DNA of 64,000 bases from Patescibacteria group bacterium UBA6241 (lineage in GTDB: Bacteria; Patescibacteriota; Minisyncoccia; Phycocordibacterales; Phycocordibacteraceae), in the NCBI GenBank assembly GCA_002441425.1, contig DJWB01000001.1, positions 224,602 to 288,601 of the forward strand, in the 5' to 3' direction. Positions 4,896 through 63,004 of the stretch are shown here, in pieces. The first letter of the stretch is position 1. The number at the start of each line of letters is the position of its first letter. The notes under the pieces were generated by a model. That model searched no databases, was not told where the DNA came from, and saw nothing but the letters and a program-made list of their open reading frames with translations. The translations under genes were made by a program, and so were the position numbers.

Positions 4896-6146
4896 ATGAA
4901 CCTAGCAGAAGAGCTCTCGGCACGCGGACTGGTTGAGCACACCTCAGCACCTCTTGAAACTATTCTCAGTACTCCTCGTACTGTATATCTTGGCGTTGAT
5001 CCGTCTGCAGACTCAATGCAGGCAGGGAACTTAGTTGTGGTGCTTTTGATGAAAAGACTTGCAGATGCAGGACACAAAATAGTGCTTCTTGTTGGGGGTG
5101 GAACAGGGATGATTGGAGACCCAAGAGAATCTGGCGAGCGTTCTCTTTCAGATACTAAAACTATAGAACGGAACAAGAAGGCTATACGTGCTCAGATGCA
5201 GCAGATTATCGGGAAGAAAGTAACACTTGTAGACAACGCAGATTGGCTCCTCAAAGTTAAGCTTGTTGATTTCTTGCGTGATATTGGGAAGCATTTCTCA
5301 GTTAACGAGCTGATCAAGCGAGACATAATCAAAAGAAGACTAGAAACACCGGACGAGAGTATTTCATACACTGAGTTTGCATACTCTCTCCTTCAGGGAT
5401 ACGACTACTTGATTCTTAGCAGAGAAAAAGGAGTAGATCTTCAGGTTGGTGCTTCAGATCAATGGACAAATATACTTTCTGGAGTTGACCTCATACGCCG
5501 CAAAGAAGGGAAAGAAGCATATGCGCTAACTTGCCCGTTAGTTACTGACGCAAATGGAAAGAAGTTTGGAAAGTCTGAAGGAAATGCTGTATGGCTTGAT
5601 GGACACAAGACTTCTCCGTTTAGTTTTTACCAGTTCTGGCTTAATCAGCCTGACGAAATGGTTGAGAAGTACCTAAAGATGTATACCTTCATTCCTTTGG
5701 ATCAGATTGAAGAGATTCTAAGAGAGCATCGGAATAATCCAGGAGCCCGCGAGGCTCAGGAAGCACTCGCAAGAAGTATTACGGAACTTGTTCACGGACC
5801 GGGCGCTACGGCCGCAGCCACAGCTGCATCAAGTGCGCTGTTTGGGAAGGAAGGGTTGTCTCATCTTCCTCGGGAGGCACGCTCAATGCTTCTTACGGAG
5901 GCGCCAAACCTTCATGTATTATCAAGCGATATCAAAAAAGGACTTAACGTCCTTGATGTGCTAGCGACAAGTCCGCTTGTTACCTCAAAATCTGAGGCCC
6001 GACGCCTTATTGAAGCAAAGGGTATTTCTCTAAACGGGACTCAAGTATCCGAGGTAGACCAGCTGCTTACAGAGGGAGACTTTTCAGACGGAATAGCGCT
6101 CCTCAAGAAGGGAAAGAGGGATGTGCTCGTTCTTGTTTTGAAATAG
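4896..6146 (+). CDS. tyrS: Tyrosyl-tRNA synthetase with C-terminal S4 domain
   Basis: Global alignment to bacterial TyrRS (DPSADS..., AGHKIVLLVGGGTGMIGDP, KFGKS as KMSKS). The HIGH motif is replaced by MQAGN. Confidence 0.9.
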   Translation: MNLAEELSARGLVEHTSAPLETILSTPRTVYLGVDPSADSMQAGNLVVVLLMKRLADAGHKIVLLVGGGTGMIGDPRESGERSLSDTKTIERNKKAIRAQMQQIIGKKVTLVDNADWLLKVKLVDFLRDIGKHFSVNELIKRDIIKRRLETPDESISYTEFAYSLLQGYDYLILSREKGVDLQVGASDQWTNILSGVDLIRRKEGKEAYALTCPLVTDANGKKFGKSEGNAVWLDGHKTSPFSFYQFWLNQPDEMVEKYLKMYTFIPLDQIEEILREHRNNPGAREAQEALARSITELVHGPGATAAATAASSALFGKEGLSHLPREARSMLLTEAPNLHVLSSDIKKGLNVLDVLATSPLVTSKSEARRLIEAKGISLNGTQVSEVDQLLTEGDFSDGIALLKKGKRDVLVLVLK

Positions 6147-6174
6147 TCGGGAGGTATCGTATACTCGCCCTATT

Positions 6175-6260
6175 GCGTCGGTGGCAGAGTGGTCAATTGC
6201 AATTGGCTGTAAACCAATCGGATTTATCCTACGTAGGTTCGAATCCTACCCGGCGCACCA
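6175..6260 (+). tRNA. tRNA-Tyr (anticodon GTA), long variable arm, encoded CCA
   Basis: Cloverleaf built by hand: acceptor gcgtcgg/ccggcgc, anticodon loop ctGTAaa, 14-nt variable arm, T-loop ttcgaat, 3' acca. Confidence 0.9.
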
Positions 6261-6350
6261 AAAAGGCACTCTTCAAAAGGGGTGCTTTTTGCGTAAATAG
6301 GCATATACTCTTCCTTAGATCATGGCCGCTACTGGCACTGGTCTTTTGTA

Positions 6351-6896
6351 TTGGAGGAGGGAACTGTGGAGCTTCCACGACTAGTACTGCTAACAACGCG
6401 AGGGAAGGCAAGTCTCGTTGCAGAACGGGATCGCCTGAAATCTGAGTTGCGGACGATTCGCGAGAATCGGCCGTCGCTTGATGCCCGCTCCCCTGGGAAC
6501 ACCAGCAGCGGGACTCGCATGGCGGGCGAAAATGCCCGGCAAGAGGACCTCTACCTGCAACGCGTAGAGGAAATCCAGCATATTCTGAGCGTTGCGCAAA
6601 CTGCGCCGAAACCGAAAGGGGTAAAGACGGTTCAAATCGGGCACATCATAACTCTGTGTTATGCCTCATGGGTTGAAAAAACCCCTGGGGGTCCGAAGAC
6701 CTCTCGCCGCACGCGCAGGTACTACGAAATCGTTGGCTTCCGCGAGGGAGACTGCGATACGACGCCAGCACGTCTCTGCTACGAGGCGGGCCTGGCGAAA
6801 CATTTCGTGGGGGAATCCAAGGGCCACAAGGTCCTGGTGCGCATGGATGGAGAAGTCCGTCCGGTTACCCTCACCAACATCAAGATGCCCAAGTAG
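6351..6896 (+). CDS. GreA/GreB-family (Gfh/Rnk-like) transcription factor paralog on a GC-rich cassette
   Basis: C-terminal FKBP-like region YYEIVGFREGDC...GLAKHFVGESKGHKVLVRMDGEVRPVTLTNI parallels the GreA C-terminus. N-terminal coiled coil. The tool start is TTG 6351; the likelier start is GTG at about 6366, after GGAGGAGGG. GC-rich with GC3-rich codons, unlike the flanking genes. Confidence 0.55.
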   Translation: MEEGTVELPRLVLLTTRGKASLVAERDRLKSELRTIRENRPSLDARSPGNTSSGTRMAGENARQEDLYLQRVEEIQHILSVAQTAPKPKGVKTVQIGHIITLCYASWVEKTPGGPKTSRRTRRYYEIVGFREGDCDTTPARLCYEAGLAKHFVGESKGHKVLVRMDGEVRPVTLTNIKMPK

Positions 6897-6972
6897 GGAG
6901 GACCTGGGCAAGTAAAGCGCCATCTCGTAGAAAGCGGGGTGGCGTTAGTGTGTATATGGTATCGTACTAGCA

Positions 6973-7929
6973 ATGGAATCAGACAAGCCTATTTTGCTCT
7001 CAGGTATCAAACCAACAGGGACCCCCCATATTGGCAATTACTTTGGTGCACTTCGTCAATTTGTAGAATTTCAAACTATTGGCACCCATCAGTGCTATTT
7101 CATGATTGCGGACTACCACGCATTAAACTCAGTCCAGAACGCAGGCCAGATGAGAGAGCTAACTAAGGAGCTTGTTTTAACGTTCTTAGCTATAGGACTT
7201 AATCCAGACAAGGTAGTTATCTTTAAACAGTCTGATGTGCCTGCACACACGGAGCTTGCATGGATTTTTGACACCATCACTACGGTTCCATACCTTATGC
7301 GCGCACATGCATACAAGGATGCAGAAGCAAAAAAGCATGAAATATCTGTAGGCACTTTTAACTATCCAATGCTCATGGCTGCAGATATTCTTTTGTATAA
7401 CGCAGCGAGAGTACCGGTTGGACAGGATCAGAAGCAACATATTGAATACGCGAGAGATACTGCCGAGAAGTTCAACCGTATTTATGGAGAAACCTTTGCG
7501 GTTCCTGAGGAATACATTGTTCCTGACGTTGCTATTGTCCCTGGAATTGACGGGCAAAAGATGAGCAAGAGTTACAACAACACGATCCCTCTCTTTGCGA
7601 GCCGTTCAGAAATTGAAGAGCTAGTTATGAGTATTGTTACAGACTCTTCAGGAGACCGACCTGAGAATGTGTATCAAATGCATAGACTACTCAAGTCTGA
7701 GCATGATTTGGTACCTGTATACGAAGAACATAAAGGAAAGTACAAAGCATTGAAGGAAGCACTCATAGAAGATCTTGATGCGTTCATAAAACCGATGCGA
7801 GAAAGATATGCAGAACTTGCTGCAAATCCTAAGATTGTCTCGGAAACTTTGGAAAAGGGAGCAGAGTTCGCGCGAGCACGTGCTGAGGAGAAAATTGAAG
7901 AGGTACGCAGGGCAGTTGGGGTTGCATAA
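6973..7929 (+). CDS. trpS: Tryptophanyl-tRNA synthetase
   Basis: Motifs GIKPTGTPHIGNYFGAL and KMSKS. Length 318 aa. Confidence 0.9.
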   Translation: MESDKPILLSGIKPTGTPHIGNYFGALRQFVEFQTIGTHQCYFMIADYHALNSVQNAGQMRELTKELVLTFLAIGLNPDKVVIFKQSDVPAHTELAWIFDTITTVPYLMRAHAYKDAEAKKHEISVGTFNYPMLMAADILLYNAARVPVGQDQKQHIEYARDTAEKFNRIYGETFAVPEEYIVPDVAIVPGIDGQKMSKSYNNTIPLFASRSEIEELVMSIVTDSSGDRPENVYQMHRLLKSEHDLVPVYEEHKGKYKALKEALIEDLDAFIKPMRERYAELAANPKIVSETLEKGAEFARARAEEKIEEVRRAVGVA

Positions 7930-8021
7930 GTTATCCCAAAGGGGATATTTACAGATATAGCACCTGTGGTATAGTTCGCGCGTGGCAACAAGTCCACGTC
8001 TGAACCTTAGGGAGGTTCGCC

Positions 8022-8213
8022 ATGCTTAACCACCATCTCCCGGAAAAGACGGCTCATTTTGAGGGCGAAGACTATGTCGCCCAACAAATGGCTTTCGTCG
8101 AAAGCCTGGGATCCGGGAACATGAACTCCGAGATCACCGGCTACCACTGCAACGGAGCGGCCAACCCGCCCTACGCTGAGGTCTTCTACCGGGAGCAAGC
8201 AACTGAACACTGA
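8022..8213 (+). CDS. Small hypothetical protein (63 aa) on GC-rich cassette
   Basis: Strong SD AGGGAGG 7 nt upstream of the ATG. GC-rich codons. A 10-bp-stem hairpin follows. No recognisable family. Confidence 0.35.
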   Translation: MLNHHLPEKTAHFEGEDYVAQQMAFVESLGSGNMNSEITGYHCNGAANPPYAEVFYREQATEH

Positions 8214-8224
8214 GCTCCCGTCCG

Positions 8225-8275
8225 CCCCGGACCCCACTGCTTCTTGTAAGCGAAAGGGTCCGGGGCGTGGTATTT
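8225..8275 (+). terminator. Hairpin (ccccggaccc / gggtccgggg, 10-bp stem) followed by a T-run
   Basis: Inverted repeat read directly from the sequence, downstream of the 63-aa ORF and upstream of aspS. Confidence 0.4.
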
Positions 8276-8285
8276 TATAGACATT

Positions 8286-28545: not shown

Positions 28546-29145
28546 TTACGGGAGACGGCCGCCGGTGATGGTGACGACACGCGCACCAGCCCAGCGGCTG
28601 CCACGACCGTCCACCTTGACCAGGTCCACGTCCCAGAAGGGCGTGACATGGAGACAGTGGCCGATGAAGACCAGGCTGATGGCCCGGGCCCCGTTTTCAA
28701 TCAGCAGAAGGTTCGGCTGGCCGTTGTCGCGCAGGATGACGTCTGGCTGTTCAGCGTCGTGCAGCAGCAGACGCGCGAACAGATCGGGCATCTTGTCGGT
28801 GAGATGGGTCTCGCCGGCTTTCGTGCACGCGTGCTCCGCCTTGACGCACAGCTCCGGTCCTTGAAGCGGACCGTCGTCGCAGAGCGGCAGGGCTTTCACG
28901 TTCACCGGCATGGCCAGGAACGGCGAGCAGTTGTCCTCCTGGCTGTACCAGTGCAGAAGAGCCGGCGACAGACGCACTTGCGTCTGCAGGCTCCTCAAGG
29001 CCATGACCCCGTCACCTTCCTTGAAGGTCGGCGACGGCAGATGGGCCCGGTTGATCAGACGCTTTTCGGGCGCGTCAGCCACCAGAGCAAGAGCATTCAT
29101 TAGATTTTCCTCCAGGAATACACTGCGTACGATTAAGTTCGTCAC
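28546..29145 (-). CDS. Hypothetical protein (199 aa) on GC-rich cassette
   Basis: GC3-rich codons. SD GGAGGAAAATCTA precedes the ATG. The antisense ORFs are Arg/Gln-rich and were judged non-coding. No family recognised. Confidence 0.45.
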   Translation of the reverse strand: MTNLIVRSVFLEENLMNALALVADAPEKRLINRAHLPSPTFKEGDGVMALRSLQTQVRLSPALLHWYSQEDNCSPFLAMPVNVKALPLCDDGPLQGPELCVKAEHACTKAGETHLTDKMPDLFARLLLHDAEQPDVILRDNGQPNLLLIENGARAISLVFIGHCLHVTPFWDVDLVKVDGRGSRWAGARVVTITGGRLP

Positions 29146-43158: not shown

Positions 43159-43283
43159 AAAAAGATACTTCCTCGGAAGATAGTTCGGAATACAATCCCG
43201 CCCATGGCGGGATTGTATTCATTTTCGCGCGCAGACGCGCGGCATTCTCAGACGGCGGGGATACTCTGAAATGCATGGATTTG
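43155..43283. repeat. IR2 left copy (129 bp) containing a 33-bp perfect palindrome (43188-43220) and a GC palindrome (43226-43241)
   Basis: Identical to the reverse complement of 44719-44847. Confidence 0.9.
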
Positions 43284-43330
43284 CACTTCTCTTTCGAGCC
43301 ATACCGTCGCAAGTGATACCATGCAAAGAT

Positions 43331-44875
43331 ATGGCACCGAGATATTTTCTCTACGCGCGCAAAAGTACCGAGCCGGACGACAAGCAAGCGATGAGTATTC
43401 CGGCGCAGCTCGTTGAGTTGCGAGAGTTCGCGCGGAGAGAAAACCTGAATATTGTCAGTGAGTACACTGAATCAAAAAGCGCAAAGACACCGGGACGCGA
43501 TGTGTTTGGCGATATGATGATGCGTCTTGAGCGCGACGAAGCCAACGGAATAATCGCGTGGCATCCCGATAGGTTGGCGAGAAACAGCATTGACGGTGGG
43601 CGCATCATATACGCCGTAGACACGGGCAAGATCGTGTCGTTGCGCTTTCCGACATTCTGGTTTGAACCCACGCCACAGGGTCTATTTATGCTTCAGGTGG
43701 CGTTCGGGCAGTCCAAGTACTATTCAGATAACCTCGGCGAGAACACGAGGCGTGGGATGCGGCAGAAACTGCGTAGAGGCGAGTGGCTCACAAAAGCGCC
43801 GTTCGGGTATACCAACAACCCTAAAACCCGCAATATCGAGCCGGACGCGGTAAAAGCAAAAATCATCGTTCGCGCTTTTGACGAGTACGCAACCGGAAAA
43901 TATACGCTCGTTTCCATGGCGCAGTTTCTCCAAGACCTCGGCATCACGACCAAAGCCGGAACACAGCTCGGCAAAGCGTCCATAAAGCGCATTTTGACGA
44001 ATCGTGCATACCTCGGCTTTACGAAACACCTCGGCGAATTCTTTCCCGGCTCGTTCGCTTCGATTATCACTTCAACGCAGTTTGAAGCGGTGCAAAATAT
44101 CCTCGCAAAACGCGAGCATCGCTACAAACGCCGTCAAAGGAACGATTTCCCGTTTACCAATCTTTTTCGCTGCACTGAGTGTACGTCTATGTACACGGCG
44201 CAATGGACAACTGGAAAATCTGGCGGACGCTATCGCTACTACCGTTGCACGAAAAAGAAAGGAAACTGCACATCAGGCTATGTGCGCGAGGATATATTGC
44301 TCGCGCAAATTCAAGAGCGGATCGAAAGCATCTCGCTTCGCGATAGGCATACGGGCTGGATGTTGAACAAGGTGGACGAGTGGGAGCGCAAAGAAAATAG
44401 TTCCAACGGGAGCGAGATACAAAATCTTTCTTCCAAGATATCAGCGAGCGAAGAGCGCATGGACAAACTGGTTTCCGCATACCTGGACGGCGATATCCCC
44501 AAGCCAATCTATTTGAAGCGGAAAGACGAAATTATGCGCGCTCTCGCCTCGCTGAACGAAGAAAAGAAAGATTTCGAGAACGGAAAGAAAAAGTGGGTCG
44601 AACCCTTGCGTGCGTGGGTTCTAGACACCAAACAAGCCATGGAATTGAGTTCGTCCGACAACTTGCACGAAATCTCCGCTTTCGTCAGGAAGGTCGGAAC
44701 GAACCCCCGTATTGAATACAAATCCATGCATTTCAGAGTATCCCCGCCGTCTGAGAATGCCGCGCGTCTGCGCGCGAAAATGAATACAATCCCGCCATGG
44801 GCGGGATTGTATTCCGAACTATCTTCCGAGGAAGTATCTTTTTGTGACCTCACGGGGAATCGAACCCCGATTTGA
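43331..44875 (+). CDS. Large serine recombinase (resolvase catalytic domain + recombinase domain + zinc ribbon + coiled coil)
   Basis: N-terminal YFLYARKSTEPDD...SIPAQ catalytic Ser region, Cys cluster CTECT...YRCTKKKGNC, and a coiled-coil tail. The ATG at 43331 is internal to the tool ORF. The ORF reads through IR2 and 30 nt into tRNA-Glu before its first stop, so the true C-terminus is uncertain. Confidence 0.8.
   Translation: MAPRYFLYARKSTEPDDKQAMSIPAQLVELREFARRENLNIVSEYTESKSAKTPGRDVFGDMMMRLERDEANGIIAWHPDRLARNSIDGGRIIYAVDTGKIVSLRFPTFWFEPTPQGLFMLQVAFGQSKYYSDNLGENTRRGMRQKLRRGEWLTKAPFGYTNNPKTRNIEPDAVKAKIIVRAFDEYATGKYTLVSMAQFLQDLGITTKAGTQLGKASIKRILTNRAYLGFTKHLGEFFPGSFASIITSTQFEAVQNILAKREHRYKRRQRNDFPFTNLFRCTECTSMYTAQWTTGKSGGRYRYYRCTKKKGNCTSGYVREDILLAQIQERIESISLRDRHTGWMLNKVDEWERKENSSNGSEIQNLSSKISASEERMDKLVSAYLDGDIPKPIYLKRKDEIMRALASLNEEKKDFENGKKKWVEPLRAWVLDTKQAMELSSSDNLHEISAFVRKVGTNPRIEYKSMHFRVSPPSENAARLRAKMNTIPPWAGLYSELSSEEVSFCDLTGNRTPI
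44719..44847. repeat. IR2 right copy (inverted); its last 3 nt overlap the tRNA-Glu 3' end
   Basis: 129/129 identity to 43155-43283 in reverse complement. The palindrome sits at 44782-44814. Confidence 0.9.
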
Positions 44876-44916
44876 TCCGTGAGAGGGATCTGTCCTAACC
44901 GTTAGACGATGAGGCC
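44845..44916 (-). tRNA. tRNA-Glu (anticodon CTC), no encoded CCA
   Basis: Hand-built cloverleaf: acceptor ggcctca/tgaggtc, D-arm identical in layout to E. coli tRNA-Glu, anticodon loop ctCTCac, T-loop ttcgatt. Confidence 0.85.
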
Positions 44917-50616: not shown

Positions 50617-51609
50617 CTACTCGCGAAACAGCAGCGGTCCCGTCACGGTCTGGTCGGTGCCATGGACGATGAGCGAATCAAGCGCCATCCACACTCCGCC
50701 CAGTGGCCTCCACTTGCCAGTGGCAAGATCAAAGCCGTAGAACATCCGATAGATCGCGTTACGCGAGGGCTCATGCAGAAGACGCATGGGCTCCACGAAC
50801 GGCTGCCGGTACATCTGTGACGTGGGTTGACTGCGAATCAGCTTCAAGAGCTGAGGGATGCTGTCCGTATCGCTCTTGCGCATCGGAACACCCCGTTCTC
50901 GCAGTTCCTGCTTCATGCCCTGAGGCAGGTGCACCTTGATGTGCCTGCTTCTGGTCCCCTGTACTGGCTTGAGCACACTCGCGCTTGCGAGCGCGGGCGA
51001 GATGTACCAGTCCAGATCTCCGTCATGTGTGGACGAGACCAGATCCCACCAGCCAAACTGGAGTCCGTACTGTTTGTTCCCCTCGTGAGAGATGGAACTA
51101 ACCGAGCGGTCCTCCAACTCGTGGAATTCGGTTTCCTCGGGCCTGCTTCTCGCGAGAAGCATTCCCTCATGATCTTTCGCTTCTTCAAGCGTCAGACCCG
51201 GACCGAAATGCAGTTCGTCATCGGTCGCCCGATAATTGCTCTGCACCCAGCGAATTGCTGGCCACGACGCTTGAACCCTTTTCAGGTTCTGGGCGAAAGC
51301 CGGATTGCAGAGTCCCGTGAGACCGAGGCCACACGGGCGCTCTTCAATCTCGTAGGGTCTGATCTGATTGTACACGTCCACGACGCAATCAATCCGCACG
51401 ATCAGAGAAGGCACGCCGCAGTGCTTGCCGACCCAGGTGTTCCCCACAGGAAACACGCGAGACCAGTCTTTCAGGATTTCTACGCCCTGAAAGACAGCTT
51501 CTGTGGGCATGTACTCCACCTCCTGCGACAAGTTGGTTCTCCACTCGCCGCCGTGGTGTTTGATAGCTCCCGAAGGTGCTTCAGCACCGGGAAAATCAAC
51601 TCCGTCCAT
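50617..51609 (-). CDS. Hypothetical protein (330 aa) on GC-rich cassette
   Basis: GC3-rich codons. SD GGAAGGAAG precedes the ATG. Bounded upstream by a 20-bp-arm palindromic terminator. No family recognised. Confidence 0.45.
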   Translation of the reverse strand: MDGVDFPGAEAPSGAIKHHGGEWRTNLSQEVEYMPTEAVFQGVEILKDWSRVFPVGNTWVGKHCGVPSLIVRIDCVVDVYNQIRPYEIEERPCGLGLTGLCNPAFAQNLKRVQASWPAIRWVQSNYRATDDELHFGPGLTLEEAKDHEGMLLARSRPEETEFHELEDRSVSSISHEGNKQYGLQFGWWDLVSSTHDGDLDWYISPALASASVLKPVQGTRSRHIKVHLPQGMKQELRERGVPMRKSDTDSIPQLLKLIRSQPTSQMYRQPFVEPMRLLHEPSRNAIYRMFYGFDLATGKWRPLGGVWMALDSLIVHGTDQTVTGPLLFRE

Positions 51610-51885: not shown

Positions 51886-52356
51886 TTAGCTCACTTTCTC
51901 AATGCTGTACGTCTGCTTTCCGTTAGGAGTTTCAAACGTAAAGACGTCTCCCTTCTTCTTTCCCATGAGTGCCGCGCCAAGTGGAGAAACGTGCGAGAGC
52001 TTGTGTACACGCATGTCAGCTTCTTCGCTTCCTACAATAGTGTACTCGTGAGCCTCAGCACTTCCTTCTTTCTTAATCGTAACCGTGGAGGTGAATCCAA
52101 CTACATCTTTCTTCTTTCCGTCAGTAACAATCTTCGCTCGCTTAACCAATTCTTCTAGTTTGCGAATACGCTCCTCTGTTGCTGCTTGCAACTCGCGTGC
52201 TTCTTGGTATTCAGCATTCTCTGAAAGATCCCCAAGAGAACGTGCATACTCCAAGTTCTCCGCAATCTCTGTACGACGCACAGTTTTGAGTGTCTCAAGT
52301 TCCTTGAGCATTTCGTCAAACTTTTCCTGGCTAACGACGGTTTCCTGATCGGTCAT
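51886..52356 (-). CDS. greA: Transcription elongation factor GreA (canonical)
   Basis: Motifs GDLSENAEYQEARE and the C-terminal FKBP-like domain. Confidence 0.9.
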   Translation of the reverse strand: MTDQETVVSQEKFDEMLKELETLKTVRRTEIAENLEYARSLGDLSENAEYQEARELQAATEERIRKLEELVKRAKIVTDGKKKDVVGFTSTVTIKKEGSAEAHEYTIVGSEEADMRVHKLSHVSPLGAALMGKKKGDVFTFETPNGKQTYSIEKVS

Positions 52357-57509: not shown

Positions 57510-58109
57510 ATGAGACTCTGTGTATCTGTTTCGGGACGCACCGGAACACAGAAGGCTGAGATCCTTTGTGAGCTACACCGGCTTGCTGAGGGCGCGCGAT
57601 TTGCGCGAGGAGACACCGATCGGGATTACCGGCCCGGCGATCTTCTGAACGTTCGCAACTATCTCACCCGGAATTCGTTTGACTGTATGCGTCGGAGTGA
57701 GTCGTTCTTGTGGACGATCCGTCATGACGGCGCAGACTACGGAATGTCGGAAGGCGCGCTTCAGTTTGCGCTTCGCGGGCGTGAGGACGAACCGATTCTA
57801 GCGCTTACGAGTGTGGTGCCGCGTATGGTTCCCGAGCTTCACAAGGCGGTTCACGAGATCACCGGCGATCCTGAATCCTATGTACCGTTTTATGTTCTCT
57901 CCACAGAAGAGGACCTGATGCGGCGCAGATGGACAACGGATGCGGGGTACCGAGACCGCCGGACTGCCGAACGGCTCTTTGAAGAAAAGGACTGGTTCAG
58001 AGAAGCGAGAAACAGCTCTGTTCCCTTCCGGTTCGTTCGCAACAACGTGAGCCCCGAACACACCGCGAGGCGCATTCTAACGCGCCTTGGCATTGAGCCG
58101 CTTTCCTAA
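57510..58109 (+). CDS. Hypothetical protein (199 aa) on GC-rich cassette, possible degenerate P-loop/kinase-like
   Basis: SD GAGGGAGGAAG precedes the ATG. N-terminal VSVSGRTGTQKAEI is loosely P-loop-like. GC3-rich codons. Confidence 0.4.
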   Translation: MRLCVSVSGRTGTQKAEILCELHRLAEGARFARGDTDRDYRPGDLLNVRNYLTRNSFDCMRRSESFLWTIRHDGADYGMSEGALQFALRGREDEPILALTSVVPRMVPELHKAVHEITGDPESYVPFYVLSTEEDLMRRRWTTDAGYRDRRTAERLFEEKDWFREARNSSVPFRFVRNNVSPEHTARRILTRLGIEPLS

Positions 58110-62296: not shown

Positions 62297-63004
62297 ATGC
62301 GTCCCATCGCACTTGCCCTTTCTGCTTCCATTACTGCCCTGATCGCCTTCCCCGCCCTCGCCGACTGCGACACCGTCGTCTACGGCAGCGTCCAGAGCGC
62401 CTATGTCTACCAGGACATCGGCGTGGTCGCGACCGACAGACCGGTTCTGCAAGCCGGCGTCAGCAAGGTCTGCGGCAAATTCACCTATGATCTGTGGACT
62501 TCAACGGAGCTGTCCACCGACGGCCCCTACGGAAACCGCAGCTACGGTGACGAGCTGGACCTGACGGTCAACTACGACACGGAAATCAGCGACACCCCGA
62601 TCGGCGTCGTTAAAGTCCAGGTTTCGGCAGCGTACTACATCGCCGCCGACTTCGGGAACGTGGACGACGACTTCGGCCAGGTCTATGTGGACTTCGGTCG
62701 GCCCATTCAATTCGGGAGCGCTACGGTCACTCCGTATGTGCGCCCGATGCAGTGGCTCGGCGTGGAGACCATCCAAGACACCACCCTGGTGCGTGCGGGC
62801 GTTCGCTTCAACATCCCACTGGATCAGAACTGGTCTGTCCGTGGAGATGCTTCGCGCACCTCCGACCTCACGCATGGGACGGGCGTCTTCCGCGGCGACG
62901 TGACGGCAACCCGAGATATGGGAAGCTGGAACCTCTCGCTCAGCGCGAAGTTCACCGAGGCCACGCAAACGGTCTTCGGGATCGGCGCAAGTCGCGTCTT
63001 CTGA
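62297..63004 (+). CDS. Secreted beta-rich hypothetical protein (about 235 aa) ending in ...RVF, on GC-rich cassette
   Basis: Signal peptide MRPIALALSASITALIAFPALA. Alternating hydrophobic pattern and a C-terminal Phe, as in outer-membrane beta-barrels. The tool ORF starts at GTG 62282. Terminator at 63034-63069. Confidence 0.45.
   Translation: MRPIALALSASITALIAFPALADCDTVVYGSVQSAYVYQDIGVVATDRPVLQAGVSKVCGKFTYDLWTSTELSTDGPYGNRSYGDELDLTVNYDTEISDTPIGVVKVQVSAAYYIAADFGNVDDDFGQVYVDFGRPIQFGSATVTPYVRPMQWLGVETIQDTTLVRAGVRFNIPLDQNWSVRGDASRTSDLTHGTGVFRGDVTATRDMGSWNLSLSAKFTEATQTVFGIGASRVF

Follow-up and report, generated by a model that had tools for sequence, protein, structure and literature searches.

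A divergent, probably non-cleaving Gre-family paralogue in a fixed slot before trpS in Patescibacteria

Introduction

What does a second member of the Gre family do in a tiny bacterial genome that already encodes GreA, and how did it come to lie between a tRNA gene and trpS? This question is raised by a gene, here called gre2, in a 64,000-nucleotide stretch of the genome of Patescibacteria group bacterium UBA6241 (contig DJWB01000001.1; the whole stretch is termed the window, and all positions refer to it), where it lies between the genes for tRNA-Tyr and trpS. A preliminary reading of the same DNA, made without database searches (termed here the sequence-only reading), had placed in 6262-6960 an additional, GC-rich Gre-like factor that seemed to have lost the first catalytic acidic residue of GreA and kept the Glu of its SENA motif, had attributed it to insertion at a tRNA hotspot, and had proposed that it competes for the RNA polymerase (RNAP) secondary channel in the manner of Gfh1 or Rnk.

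In GreA, the carboxylates of D41 and E44 hold the second catalytic Mg2+. Gre paralogues known not to cleave include Gfh1, which inhibits all catalytic activities of RNAP and undergoes a pH-dependent domain flip, Rv3788, and Rnk (the Escherichia coli regulator of nucleoside diphosphate kinase; 3BMB), a Gre-fold protein that binds RNAP. As set out below, we favor, at a probability of roughly 0.55, the reading that gre2 encodes an accessory, horizontally exchanged and non-cleaving occupant of the RNAP secondary channel, which would compete with the resident GreA and thereby modulate or inhibit catalysis.

Results

gre2 is a divergent member of the Gre superfamily

The 712-bp interval between tRNA-Tyr and trpS (6261-6972) contains gre2 as its sole long open reading frame (ORF) with homologues, and this frame, running from 6366 to 6896, is intact, as had been anticipated. 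The gene, its parts and the canonical greA found elsewhere in the window are as follows:

6366-6896, plus strand: gre2, a divergent Gre-family paralogue of 176 amino acids plus stop, with a GTG start
6396-6593, plus strand: N-terminal coiled-coil domain of gre2 (residues 11-76), delimited by DSSP on the predicted model and aligning to the GreA helices
6465-6527, plus strand: predicted tip loop of gre2 (residues 34-54, NRPSLDARSPGNTSSGTRMAG), with N45/G49 at the positions of GreA D41/E44; predicted local distance difference test score (pLDDT) 58-72, no helix
6594-6893, plus strand: C-terminal Gre-like globular domain of gre2 (residues 77-176), presumed to dock on RNAP; delimited by Pfam and motif
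51886-52356, minus strand: canonical greA, whose GDLSENAEY tip is intact and which matches the two Gre domains of Pfam (E = 3e-22 and 5e-25)

The canonical GreA scores 165 bits against TIGR01462, for which the cut-off is 139. As a single sequence, gre2 reached E = 0.073 against the Pfam GreA_GreB C-terminal domain PF01272 (13.5 bits, cut-off 26.9), showed no match to the Pfam N-terminal Gre domain PF03449, and aligned over its full length to the best NCBIfam GreA model with E = 9e-7 (28.9 bits, cut-off 145) and to the NCBIfam Rnk model NF004548 with E = 0.013 (15.4 bits, cut-off 126). BLASTP against the canonical GreA of the window was insignificant, and phmmer against the PDB returned only spurious coiled-coil matches. 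Because the single sequence yielded only coiled-coil noise against the PDB, the comparison had to be made with a family profile. To build it, 1.84 billion cluster representatives were searched exhaustively with HMMER (E up to 1e-3), which recovered relatives of gre2 in 31 clusters at 50% identity; an alignment of 30 of these relatives served both as the family profile and as the source of an AlphaFold2 model, and genomic relatives were located with a 5-member alignment.

The 30-member profile matched E. coli GreA (1grj_A) over its full length (residues 5-157) with E = 7.7e-13, and Gfh1 (about 3e-11 to 4e-10) and GreB (4e-7), both likewise over their full lengths. Half of the family members (15/30) individually match the Pfam GreA_GreB C-terminal domain, the best with E = 3.5e-16, and an hhalign comparison of the trpS-linked clade of gre2 with a small GreA/Gfh1 alignment gave a probability of 98.3% (E = 2e-14, 152 columns). 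The AlphaFold2 model (pLDDT 88.6; predicted template modelling score 0.76) has two long helices, at residues 11-33 and 55-76, followed by a beta-rich C-terminal domain (DSSP). When this model was compared to the PDB by Foldseek, the best match was GreA (9a7t_B; E = 5e-11, template modelling (TM) scores 0.71/0.79), RNAP-bound Gfh1 (3aoi_X, 3aoh_X) matched with TM 0.70/0.79, and GreB and 1GRJ were also matched, such that the GreA, Gfh1 and GreB matches span E = 5e-11 to 7e-7; for Rnk (3bmb_A), TM was 0.33/0.42. Within the C-terminal domain, the gre2 pattern IVGxxEGDC...P.R.SY...L...F.G...G parallels IVGxxEAD...IS..SP.G.AL.G of GreA. No match to Pfam zf-dskA_traR was found at E up to 1, and all fold matches are of the Gre type.

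Homology of gre2 to the Gre family, with a Gre fold as predicted, is thus well supported, and a second, divergent Gre-family protein besides the product of greA is confirmed by both profile and fold. By these two lines of evidence gre2 lies within the Gre superfamily and is not a GreA/GreB equivalog, Gfh1, Rnk or DksA/TraR: It is not an equivalog because it fails the family thresholds and lacks the catalytic residues, not Gfh1 because the acidic tip is absent and the lineage differs (Patescibacteria), and not Rnk in view of a full-length coiled coil.

The closest genomic relatives of gre2 are encoded in metagenome-assembled genomes (MAGs) of Patescibacteria / Candidatus Paceibacterota, at loci denoted here L003 (89% identity), L004 (68%) and L005 (49%). 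Relative to these, the ratio of nonsynonymous to synonymous divergence (dN/dS, Nei-Gojobori) is 0.12, 0.08 and 0.18, respectively. Because dN/dS is low and the reading frame, ribosome-binding site and downstream hairpin are conserved, gre2 is a working gene under purifying selection.

The coiled-coil tip lacks the catalytic carboxylates of GreA

Both in hmmsearch against PDB GreA and in hhalign, GreA D41 falls on N45 of gre2 and E44 on G49, with one residue inserted. The register is anchored by ARSPG (residues 40-44), which lies on AREHG/ARSLG of GreA (36-40), and by R66-V67, which lie on R61-I62; the span from TxxG to AR is 30 residues in gre2 and 29 in GreA, and the coiled-coil segment from AR to AQ 37 and 36. 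Because the residue counts between anchors are nearly equal to those of GreA, the arms of the gre2 hairpin should meet at about residues 45-49. On these alignments both catalytic carboxylates of GreA are lost in gre2, since two profile alignments place D41/E44 on N45/G49. The sequence-only reading was therefore right that the first acidic residue is gone, and the inspection of tip residues that it called for, made on GreA/Gfh1 profile alignments, finds no acidic residue at either position; the Glu that it took to be retained from SENA is E55 of GENA (residues 54-57), which lies six residues beyond the E44 position toward the C-terminus, about 1.7 helical turns along helix 2, and thus out of register.

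In place of the helical tip, gre2 has a predicted loop of 21 residues that is rich in Gly, Ser, Thr, Asn and Pro, includes P36, P43, G44, G49 and G54, and contains two arginines. If the model is correct, each arm of the rigid coiled coil would fall short of its GreA counterpart by about seven residues, and this flexible loop would cap the coiled coil. Across the gre2 family, the tip segment is hypervariable in both sequence and length and frequently rich in Cys or Gly; in many members a D-[DE] pair stands directly ahead of a conserved RQ. The sub-clade of the window (window, L003, L004 and L005), in which identity falls as low as 49%, has the conserved motif ARS(P/A)G..(S/G)G.RM.GE(N/S)AR, so the tip of gre2 is locally constrained.

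A separate subgroup of Gre-like proteins with the tip GG(D)xWHDNxAFE(E/D) seemingly keeps both acidic positions. Its genes are located upstream of thymidylate kinase: those for P0025 and P0038 (L006, 555-1609; L007 and L008, 2654-3698) lie immediately 5' of the kinase gene, the two frames overlapping in one case and being 1 nt apart in the other, an arrangement that recalls the link between Rnk and nucleotide kinases.

gre2 holds a fixed slot immediately 5' of trpS

Wherever the host of a gre2 family member could be identified it was a Patescibacteria genome, the other members being found on unclassified metagenome contigs. In all 12 lineages (12/12), gre2 is situated immediately 5' of trpS with a stop-to-start gap of 76-93 bp. 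L003, L004 and L005 share the order tyrS, tRNA-Tyr, gre2, trpS, aspS, pepA, and the same slot is held by distant homologues of 25-35% identity (L010, L011, L012, L093-L096): The order is tyrS, tRNA-Tyr, gre2, trpS in L010; tyrS, tRNA-Tyr, a response-regulator-like ORF, gre2, trpS in L096; and gre2 followed by trpS in L011 and L095. In the remaining three (L012, L093, L094), a more divergent Gre-like ORF precedes gre2 as a tandem pair, and no tRNA-Tyr was detected on the retrieved part of the contig although gre2 still lies upstream of trpS. The upstream Gre-like ORFs of these loci (L012, 31-624; L093, 450-998; L094, 2216-2791) encode 182-197 amino acids with a recognizable Pfam GreA_GreB C-terminal domain and an N-terminal half that is barely alignable.

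Distribution of the gene is patchy, as 80 other metagenomic TrpS loci (TrpS 56-82% identity) lack gre2. The comparison of tRNA-Tyr|trpS junctions that the sequence-only reading had asked for shows them to be either almost empty in relatives without gre2 (388 bp in L020, 564 bp in L015) or occupied by unrelated cargo (L023, L025, L031, L032), such as a dihydroorotate dehydrogenase, a LAGLIDADG-like ORF, a permease or a FemAB-like gene. No decayed remnants of gre2 were found in junctions without the gene (tblastn, none better than E = 0.02; hidden Markov model search, none better than E = 0.7). The tyrS/tRNA-Tyr/trpS slot is a general hotspot of gene turnover. Cargo genes in this interval lie at 3107-4969 in L023, 2228-3265 in L025, 3117-4909 in L031, 4148-4762 in L032 and 2186-2890 in L096; the dihydroorotate dehydrogenase is truncated in L032, the permease is antisense, and the ORF of L096 is the response-regulator-like one.

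Composition and divergence of gre2 differ from those of its neighbors

The compositional claim of the sequence-only reading is borne out: GC content is 0.585 at 6401-6800 versus about 0.42-0.46 in the flanks, and GC content at third codon positions (GC3) of gre2 is 0.638 versus 0.35-0.45 in the majority of the 53 large ORFs of the window (about 0.40), only three of which exceed it, so that its codon usage is not host-like. Similarly, gre2 has a GC3 of 0.63 in L003 and 0.69 in L004, versus about 0.40 for these low-GC hosts, whereas in GC-richer hosts it equals or falls below that of the host. Four further ORFs of the window, none with a Pfam match, have a GC3 of 0.61-0.80 (28546-29100 and 50617-51609, minus strand; 57510-58109 and 62297-63004, plus strand), the second of which adjoins canonical greA, and they may represent a pool of foreign single-gene insertions with a composition like that of gre2. 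The window also encodes a large serine recombinase (43271-44875, plus strand; GC3 0.60; Resolvase, Recombinase and Zn_ribbon_recom domains), whose 3' end overlaps tRNA-Glu (44844-44916, minus strand) and which appears to be a vestige of an integrated element, or its edge.

Divergence of gre2 is discordant with that of the surrounding genes. For eight pooled flanking genes, the window, L003 and L004 are mutually equidistant, with proportions of nonsynonymous differences (pN) of 0.064-0.071 and of synonymous differences (pS) of 0.72-0.73, the latter being saturated. For gre2, pN and pS between the window and L003 are only 0.054 and 0.346 (135 synonymous sites), with a pS of 0.245 in the C-terminal half, whereas both differ from L004 by a pN of 0.21-0.23 and a pS of 0.67-0.74. 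Synonymous difference to one and the same relative is therefore 0.35 in gre2 and 0.66-0.78 in nine neighboring genes. Strong synonymous constraint as the source of the low pS between the window and L003 can be rejected, because pS of gre2 is saturated (0.67-0.74) against L004, which is equidistant in its flanks. It follows that gre2 has been exchanged horizontally, with at least one allele replacement at the slot after the split of the window, L003 and L004, whatever the root. Judged by pN, the protein evolves about three times as fast as its flanks, and the identity of gre2 declines in the same order as those of TrpS and TyrS. The gene thus carries both native signals, in its long-held slot, and foreign signals, in its composition and divergence.

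With respect to the means of exchange, there is no integrase in 6261-6972, and a repeat search of 6100-7050 found no att-like direct repeat of the tRNA-Tyr 3' end. Relatives of gre2 in phages were likewise absent from PHROGs and IMG/VR and from 50,697 phage records searched by tblastn, so a phage origin is unsupported, and no PADLOC defence-system model matched gre2. The flanks are highly conserved, tRNA-Tyr being 98% identical and the region comprising the hairpin, promoter and trpS start about 90% identical. Because no integrase, att-type repeat or phage relative was found, homologous replacement via these conserved flanks would be the most economical mechanism of exchange. The proposal of the sequence-only reading that gre2 was recently inserted at a tRNA hotspot is not supported on these grounds, and because distant homologues occupy the same slot, some of them with no adjacent tRNA-Tyr detected.

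Borders and signals of the slot

The slot is delimited, and gre2 separated from its neighbors, by the following features:

4896-6146: tyrS, upstream of tRNA-Tyr
6138-6165, plus strand: putative sigma-70-like promoter of tRNA-Tyr (TTGAAA, 16-nt spacer, TATACT), proposed from its match to consensus (10/12)
6175-6260, plus strand: tRNA-Tyr (GTA), which borders the slot on the left, called by ARAGORN (Rfam tRNA, 60.7 bits)
6261-6290, plus strand: A-tract, hairpin and T-tract 3' of tRNA-Tyr, resembling an intrinsic terminator (-14.6 kcal/mol, z = -3.9)
6353-6361, plus strand: Shine-Dalgarno sequence of gre2, GGAGGAGGG, 5 nt ahead of the GTG at 6366
6916-6946, plus strand: terminator-like 13-bp hairpin 3' of gre2 (-21 kcal/mol, z = -5.2)
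6954-6968, plus strand: ATATGGTATCGTACT motif, extended -10-like (TGgTATCGT), 7 nt ahead of the trpS ATG
6973-7929, plus strand: trpS, which borders the slot on the right and in every case is the next gene 3' of gre2

The ORF call over gre2 (6351-6896) begins at a TTG that overlaps the Shine-Dalgarno sequence, which is itself kept in L001 and L002. The GTG at 6366 is likely the true start: It yields the same 176-residue product as gene-caller predictions on two independent assemblies (P0001, 99% identity; P0002, 89-90%), and the orthologues in L004 and L005 have an ATG at the equivalent position. On the left border, the tRNA-Tyr of the window is 98% identical to those of L003 and L004, and the stem of the hairpin behind it is also present, with altered bases, in L001. 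Immediately ahead of tRNA-Tyr, at 6153-6165, lies GGTATCGTATACT, which is related to the motif upstream of trpS.

On the right, trpS is followed by aspS and a leucyl-aminopeptidase gene. The hairpin 3' of gre2 recurs at the same place with a different stem sequence in 11/11 compared lineages, often followed by a T-rich tract, and ATGGTATCGT is almost invariant in 11/11 lineages (the window, L003-L005, L010-L012 and L093-L096), 6-8 nt before the trpS ATG, where a Shine-Dalgarno sequence was looked for and none is present. We infer that the hairpin acts as a terminator and ATGGTATCGT as an extended -10-like promoter giving a leaderless trpS mRNA. Because the terminator hairpin and the conserved promoter-like motif lie between them, gre2 and trpS are probably transcribed separately, and co-transcription of the two is disfavored. 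In an Rfam scan from tRNA-Tyr to aspS, the tRNA alone passed threshold, with no T-box and no other element. The 356-bp spacer between trpS and aspS (7930-8285) is GC-rich (0.53-0.54), contains only short ORFs, has no Rfam match, and is the stretch least conserved relative to L003 and L004 (57-65% identity).

Discussion

Comparison of gre2 with characterized factors narrows down what its product might do. It shares with GreA (1GRJ) the two-domain architecture, a nearly equal spacing of TxxG, AR and AQ, the C-terminal IVGxxE(G/A)D and the best fold match, but lacks D41 and E44, is predicted to have a flexible loop where GreA has a tight helical hairpin, and is an accessory gene of patchy distribution and horizontal exchange that coexists with canonical greA and fails the Pfam and NCBIfam thresholds. 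Like Gfh1 of Thermus and Deinococcus (2F23, 3AOH/3AOI), it is a Gre-fold paralogue found beside GreA, and it would, as has been shown for Gfh1, not cleave; moreover, its model superposes best on the RNAP-bound conformation of Gfh1. However, the Gfh1 tip ESSDDYDDSG is acidic, whereas the gre2 tip SPGNTSSGTRMAG contains no acidic residues; in sequence, the gre2 family is no nearer to Gfh1 than to GreA, and its hosts are Patescibacteria MAGs. Gfh1, which keeps the conserved acidic tip residues, and Rv3788 of Mycobacterium tuberculosis both bind the RNAP secondary channel and inhibit catalysis, Rv3788 by competing with GreA for the channel and blocking nucleotide addition, for which it needs its pair of conserved acidic residues (PMC4598747). 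As a second Gre-like protein, Rv3788 acts in the mode proposed here for gre2, except that gre2 lacks acidic residues at the two inhibitory positions. The coiled coil of Rnk is about half the usual length and cannot reach the RNAP active site (PMC4598747). Rnk resembles gre2 in having a Gre fold without, as we presume for gre2, cleavage activity, and differs from it in that the coiled-coil segment of gre2 is one residue longer than that of GreA and its structural match to Rnk is weak, a comparison in which, nonetheless, each predicted helix of gre2 is some seven residues shorter and the 21-residue loop lies between the two.

An analogue is known from archaea. TFS4 of Sulfolobus, a lineage-restricted and virus-induced protein, has lost both acidic tip residues and inhibits RNAP through the secondary channel (PMC5715097). 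Like gre2, it is a cleavage-factor paralogue that lacks the catalytic acids and exists beside the canonical factor; it is an analogue and not a homologue, having an unrelated zinc-ribbon fold and a tip that forms a shorter hairpin with three lysines, whereas that of gre2 is longer, Gly/Ser-rich and has two arginines. Because the first catalytic acidic residue is absent, a non-cleaving role in the secondary channel is the most plausible one for gre2, and to this extent the sequence-only reading stands; its specific likeness to Gfh1, which keeps an acidic tip, or to Rnk, which has a short coiled coil, does not.

In the reading that we prefer, gre2 would be a functional, lineage-restricted Gre paralogue that keeps the antiparallel coiled coil and globular domain of the family. 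Its C-terminal domain would dock at the beta-prime rim helices, where the RNAP secondary channel opens, and its coiled coil would be inserted into that channel. Because equivalents of D41 and E44 are missing, Mg-B and water would not be positioned and gre2 should be unable to cleave in the manner of GreA; with a flexible loop in place of the rigid helical tip, it would occupy the channel, compete with GreA, and modulate or inhibit RNAP. As a gene, it would form an accessory unit that has a ribosome-binding site of its own, flanking terminator hairpins and a fixed position 76-93 bp before trpS; its alleles would be swapped among related Patescibacteria, the probable route being homologous recombination via the tRNA-Tyr and trpS-promoter flanks. 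Such horizontal allele replacement would explain the GC-rich, non-host codon usage of gre2.

Several observations weigh against this reading. RNAP binding by the gre2 family is argued from homology, and the single sequence of gre2 is below every curated family threshold and has no sequence match in the PDB. The tip, at a pLDDT of 58-72, is a low-confidence part of the model whose reach and shape are loosely predicted; acidic residues persist near it (D39, E55, E60 and D61), and the ENA tripeptide common to gre2 and the SENA of GreA may not be a mere coincidence. That gre2 is invariably linked to trpS might indicate a function outside general transcription. Finally, an acid-free tip might simply be inert, because inhibition by both Gfh1 and Rv3788 depends on acidic tip residues (PMC4598747).

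Some of these observations favor other explanations. The resemblance of ENA to SENA, the overall Gre architecture, and the occurrence of D at position 54 and D/E at position 55 in most members of the trpS-linked clade would fit a gre2 that is still a cleavage factor, a GreB-like second Gre in which D39, E55 or the D/E pair before RQ substitutes for D41/E44. We consider this unlikely: Two independent profile alignments set E55 six residues beyond the E44 position on its C-terminal side, position 54 is Gly in the sub-clade of the window, and N and G occupy the places aligned with D41/E44; among family members the tip is hypervariable in both sequence and length, unlike a catalytic motif, and the genome already encodes a canonical GreA. 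The linkage to trpS in 12/12 lineages at a near-constant 76-93 bp, often inside a cluster of tyrS, tRNA-Tyr, gre2, trpS and aspS, bears instead on a Gre fold repurposed away from the RNAP channel, be it for the expression of trpS, tyrS or tRNA-Tyr, for aromatic aminoacyl-tRNA metabolism, or for Rnk-like nucleotide metabolism, with which the distant WHDN-tip relatives adjoining or overlapping thymidylate kinase and the weak NCBIfam match to Rnk (E = 0.013) would agree. This too is an unlikely explanation, if slightly less so than retained cleavage, given that a terminator hairpin and a conserved promoter-like motif separate gre2 from trpS, that most relatives have trpS without gre2, that allele replacement through flanking homology explains the fixed position equally well, and that no Gre-fold protein is known to act outside RNAP.

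The two other explanations concern how gre2 arrived and whether it functions at all. That a site-specific integrative element, recently inserted at the 3' end of tRNA-Tyr, brought gre2 in as cargo would account for its foreign composition and for junctions that are variable or empty in relatives, and the same genome has a GC3-rich serine recombinase abutting tRNA-Glu. Yet neither an integrase nor a second ORF lies between tRNA-Tyr and trpS, the tRNA 3' end is not repeated, the slot is occupied down to 25-30% identity with gre2 diverging in the same order as its flanks, gre2 occurs in L012, L093 and L094 with no tRNA-Tyr detected on the retrieved part of the contig, and viral collections contain no homologue, all of which makes such an origin improbable. 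Least probable by far is that gre2 is a decaying, functionless duplicate of greA: The loss of catalytic residues, the fast evolution (pN three times that of the flanks) and the patchy distribution might be expected of such a gene, but dN/dS is 0.08-0.18, more than 12 lineages and all 31 clusters (50% identity) keep an intact frame, and conservation extends to the ribosome-binding site, the terminator and, within the sub-clade, the tip motif.

If gre2 is a secondary-channel occupant as we propose, what might drive its turnover? Evolution about three times as fast as the flanks, a hypervariable tip, tandem paralogues, patchy distribution and allele exchange are features of the kind seen in genetic conflict. 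A tentative, and in our view unlikely, extension is that gre2 and its relatives form a mobile arms-race family of RNAP 'plugs' in candidate-phyla bacteria, bacterial counterparts of archaeal TFS4. Were this true, such plugs would either shut down host transcription, in dormancy or abortive infection when phages attack, or shield the channel from inhibitors of phages or competitors, and the hypervariable tip would be a specificity determinant, with alleles passed among lineages through recombination at the conserved tRNA-Tyr/trpS slot.

The discordant synonymous divergence of gre2 provides a clean, small case of allele replacement at a fixed slot in uncultivated bacteria. In the trpS-linked clade, the catalytic tip of a Gre factor appears to have been replaced by a variable, acid-free loop, carried by an exchangeable gene in tiny, regulator-poor genomes. 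If gre2 binds RNAP, these bacteria would have a further route of transcription control via the secondary channel, and the family would constitute a natural experiment on the function of the Gre tip without its carboxylates.

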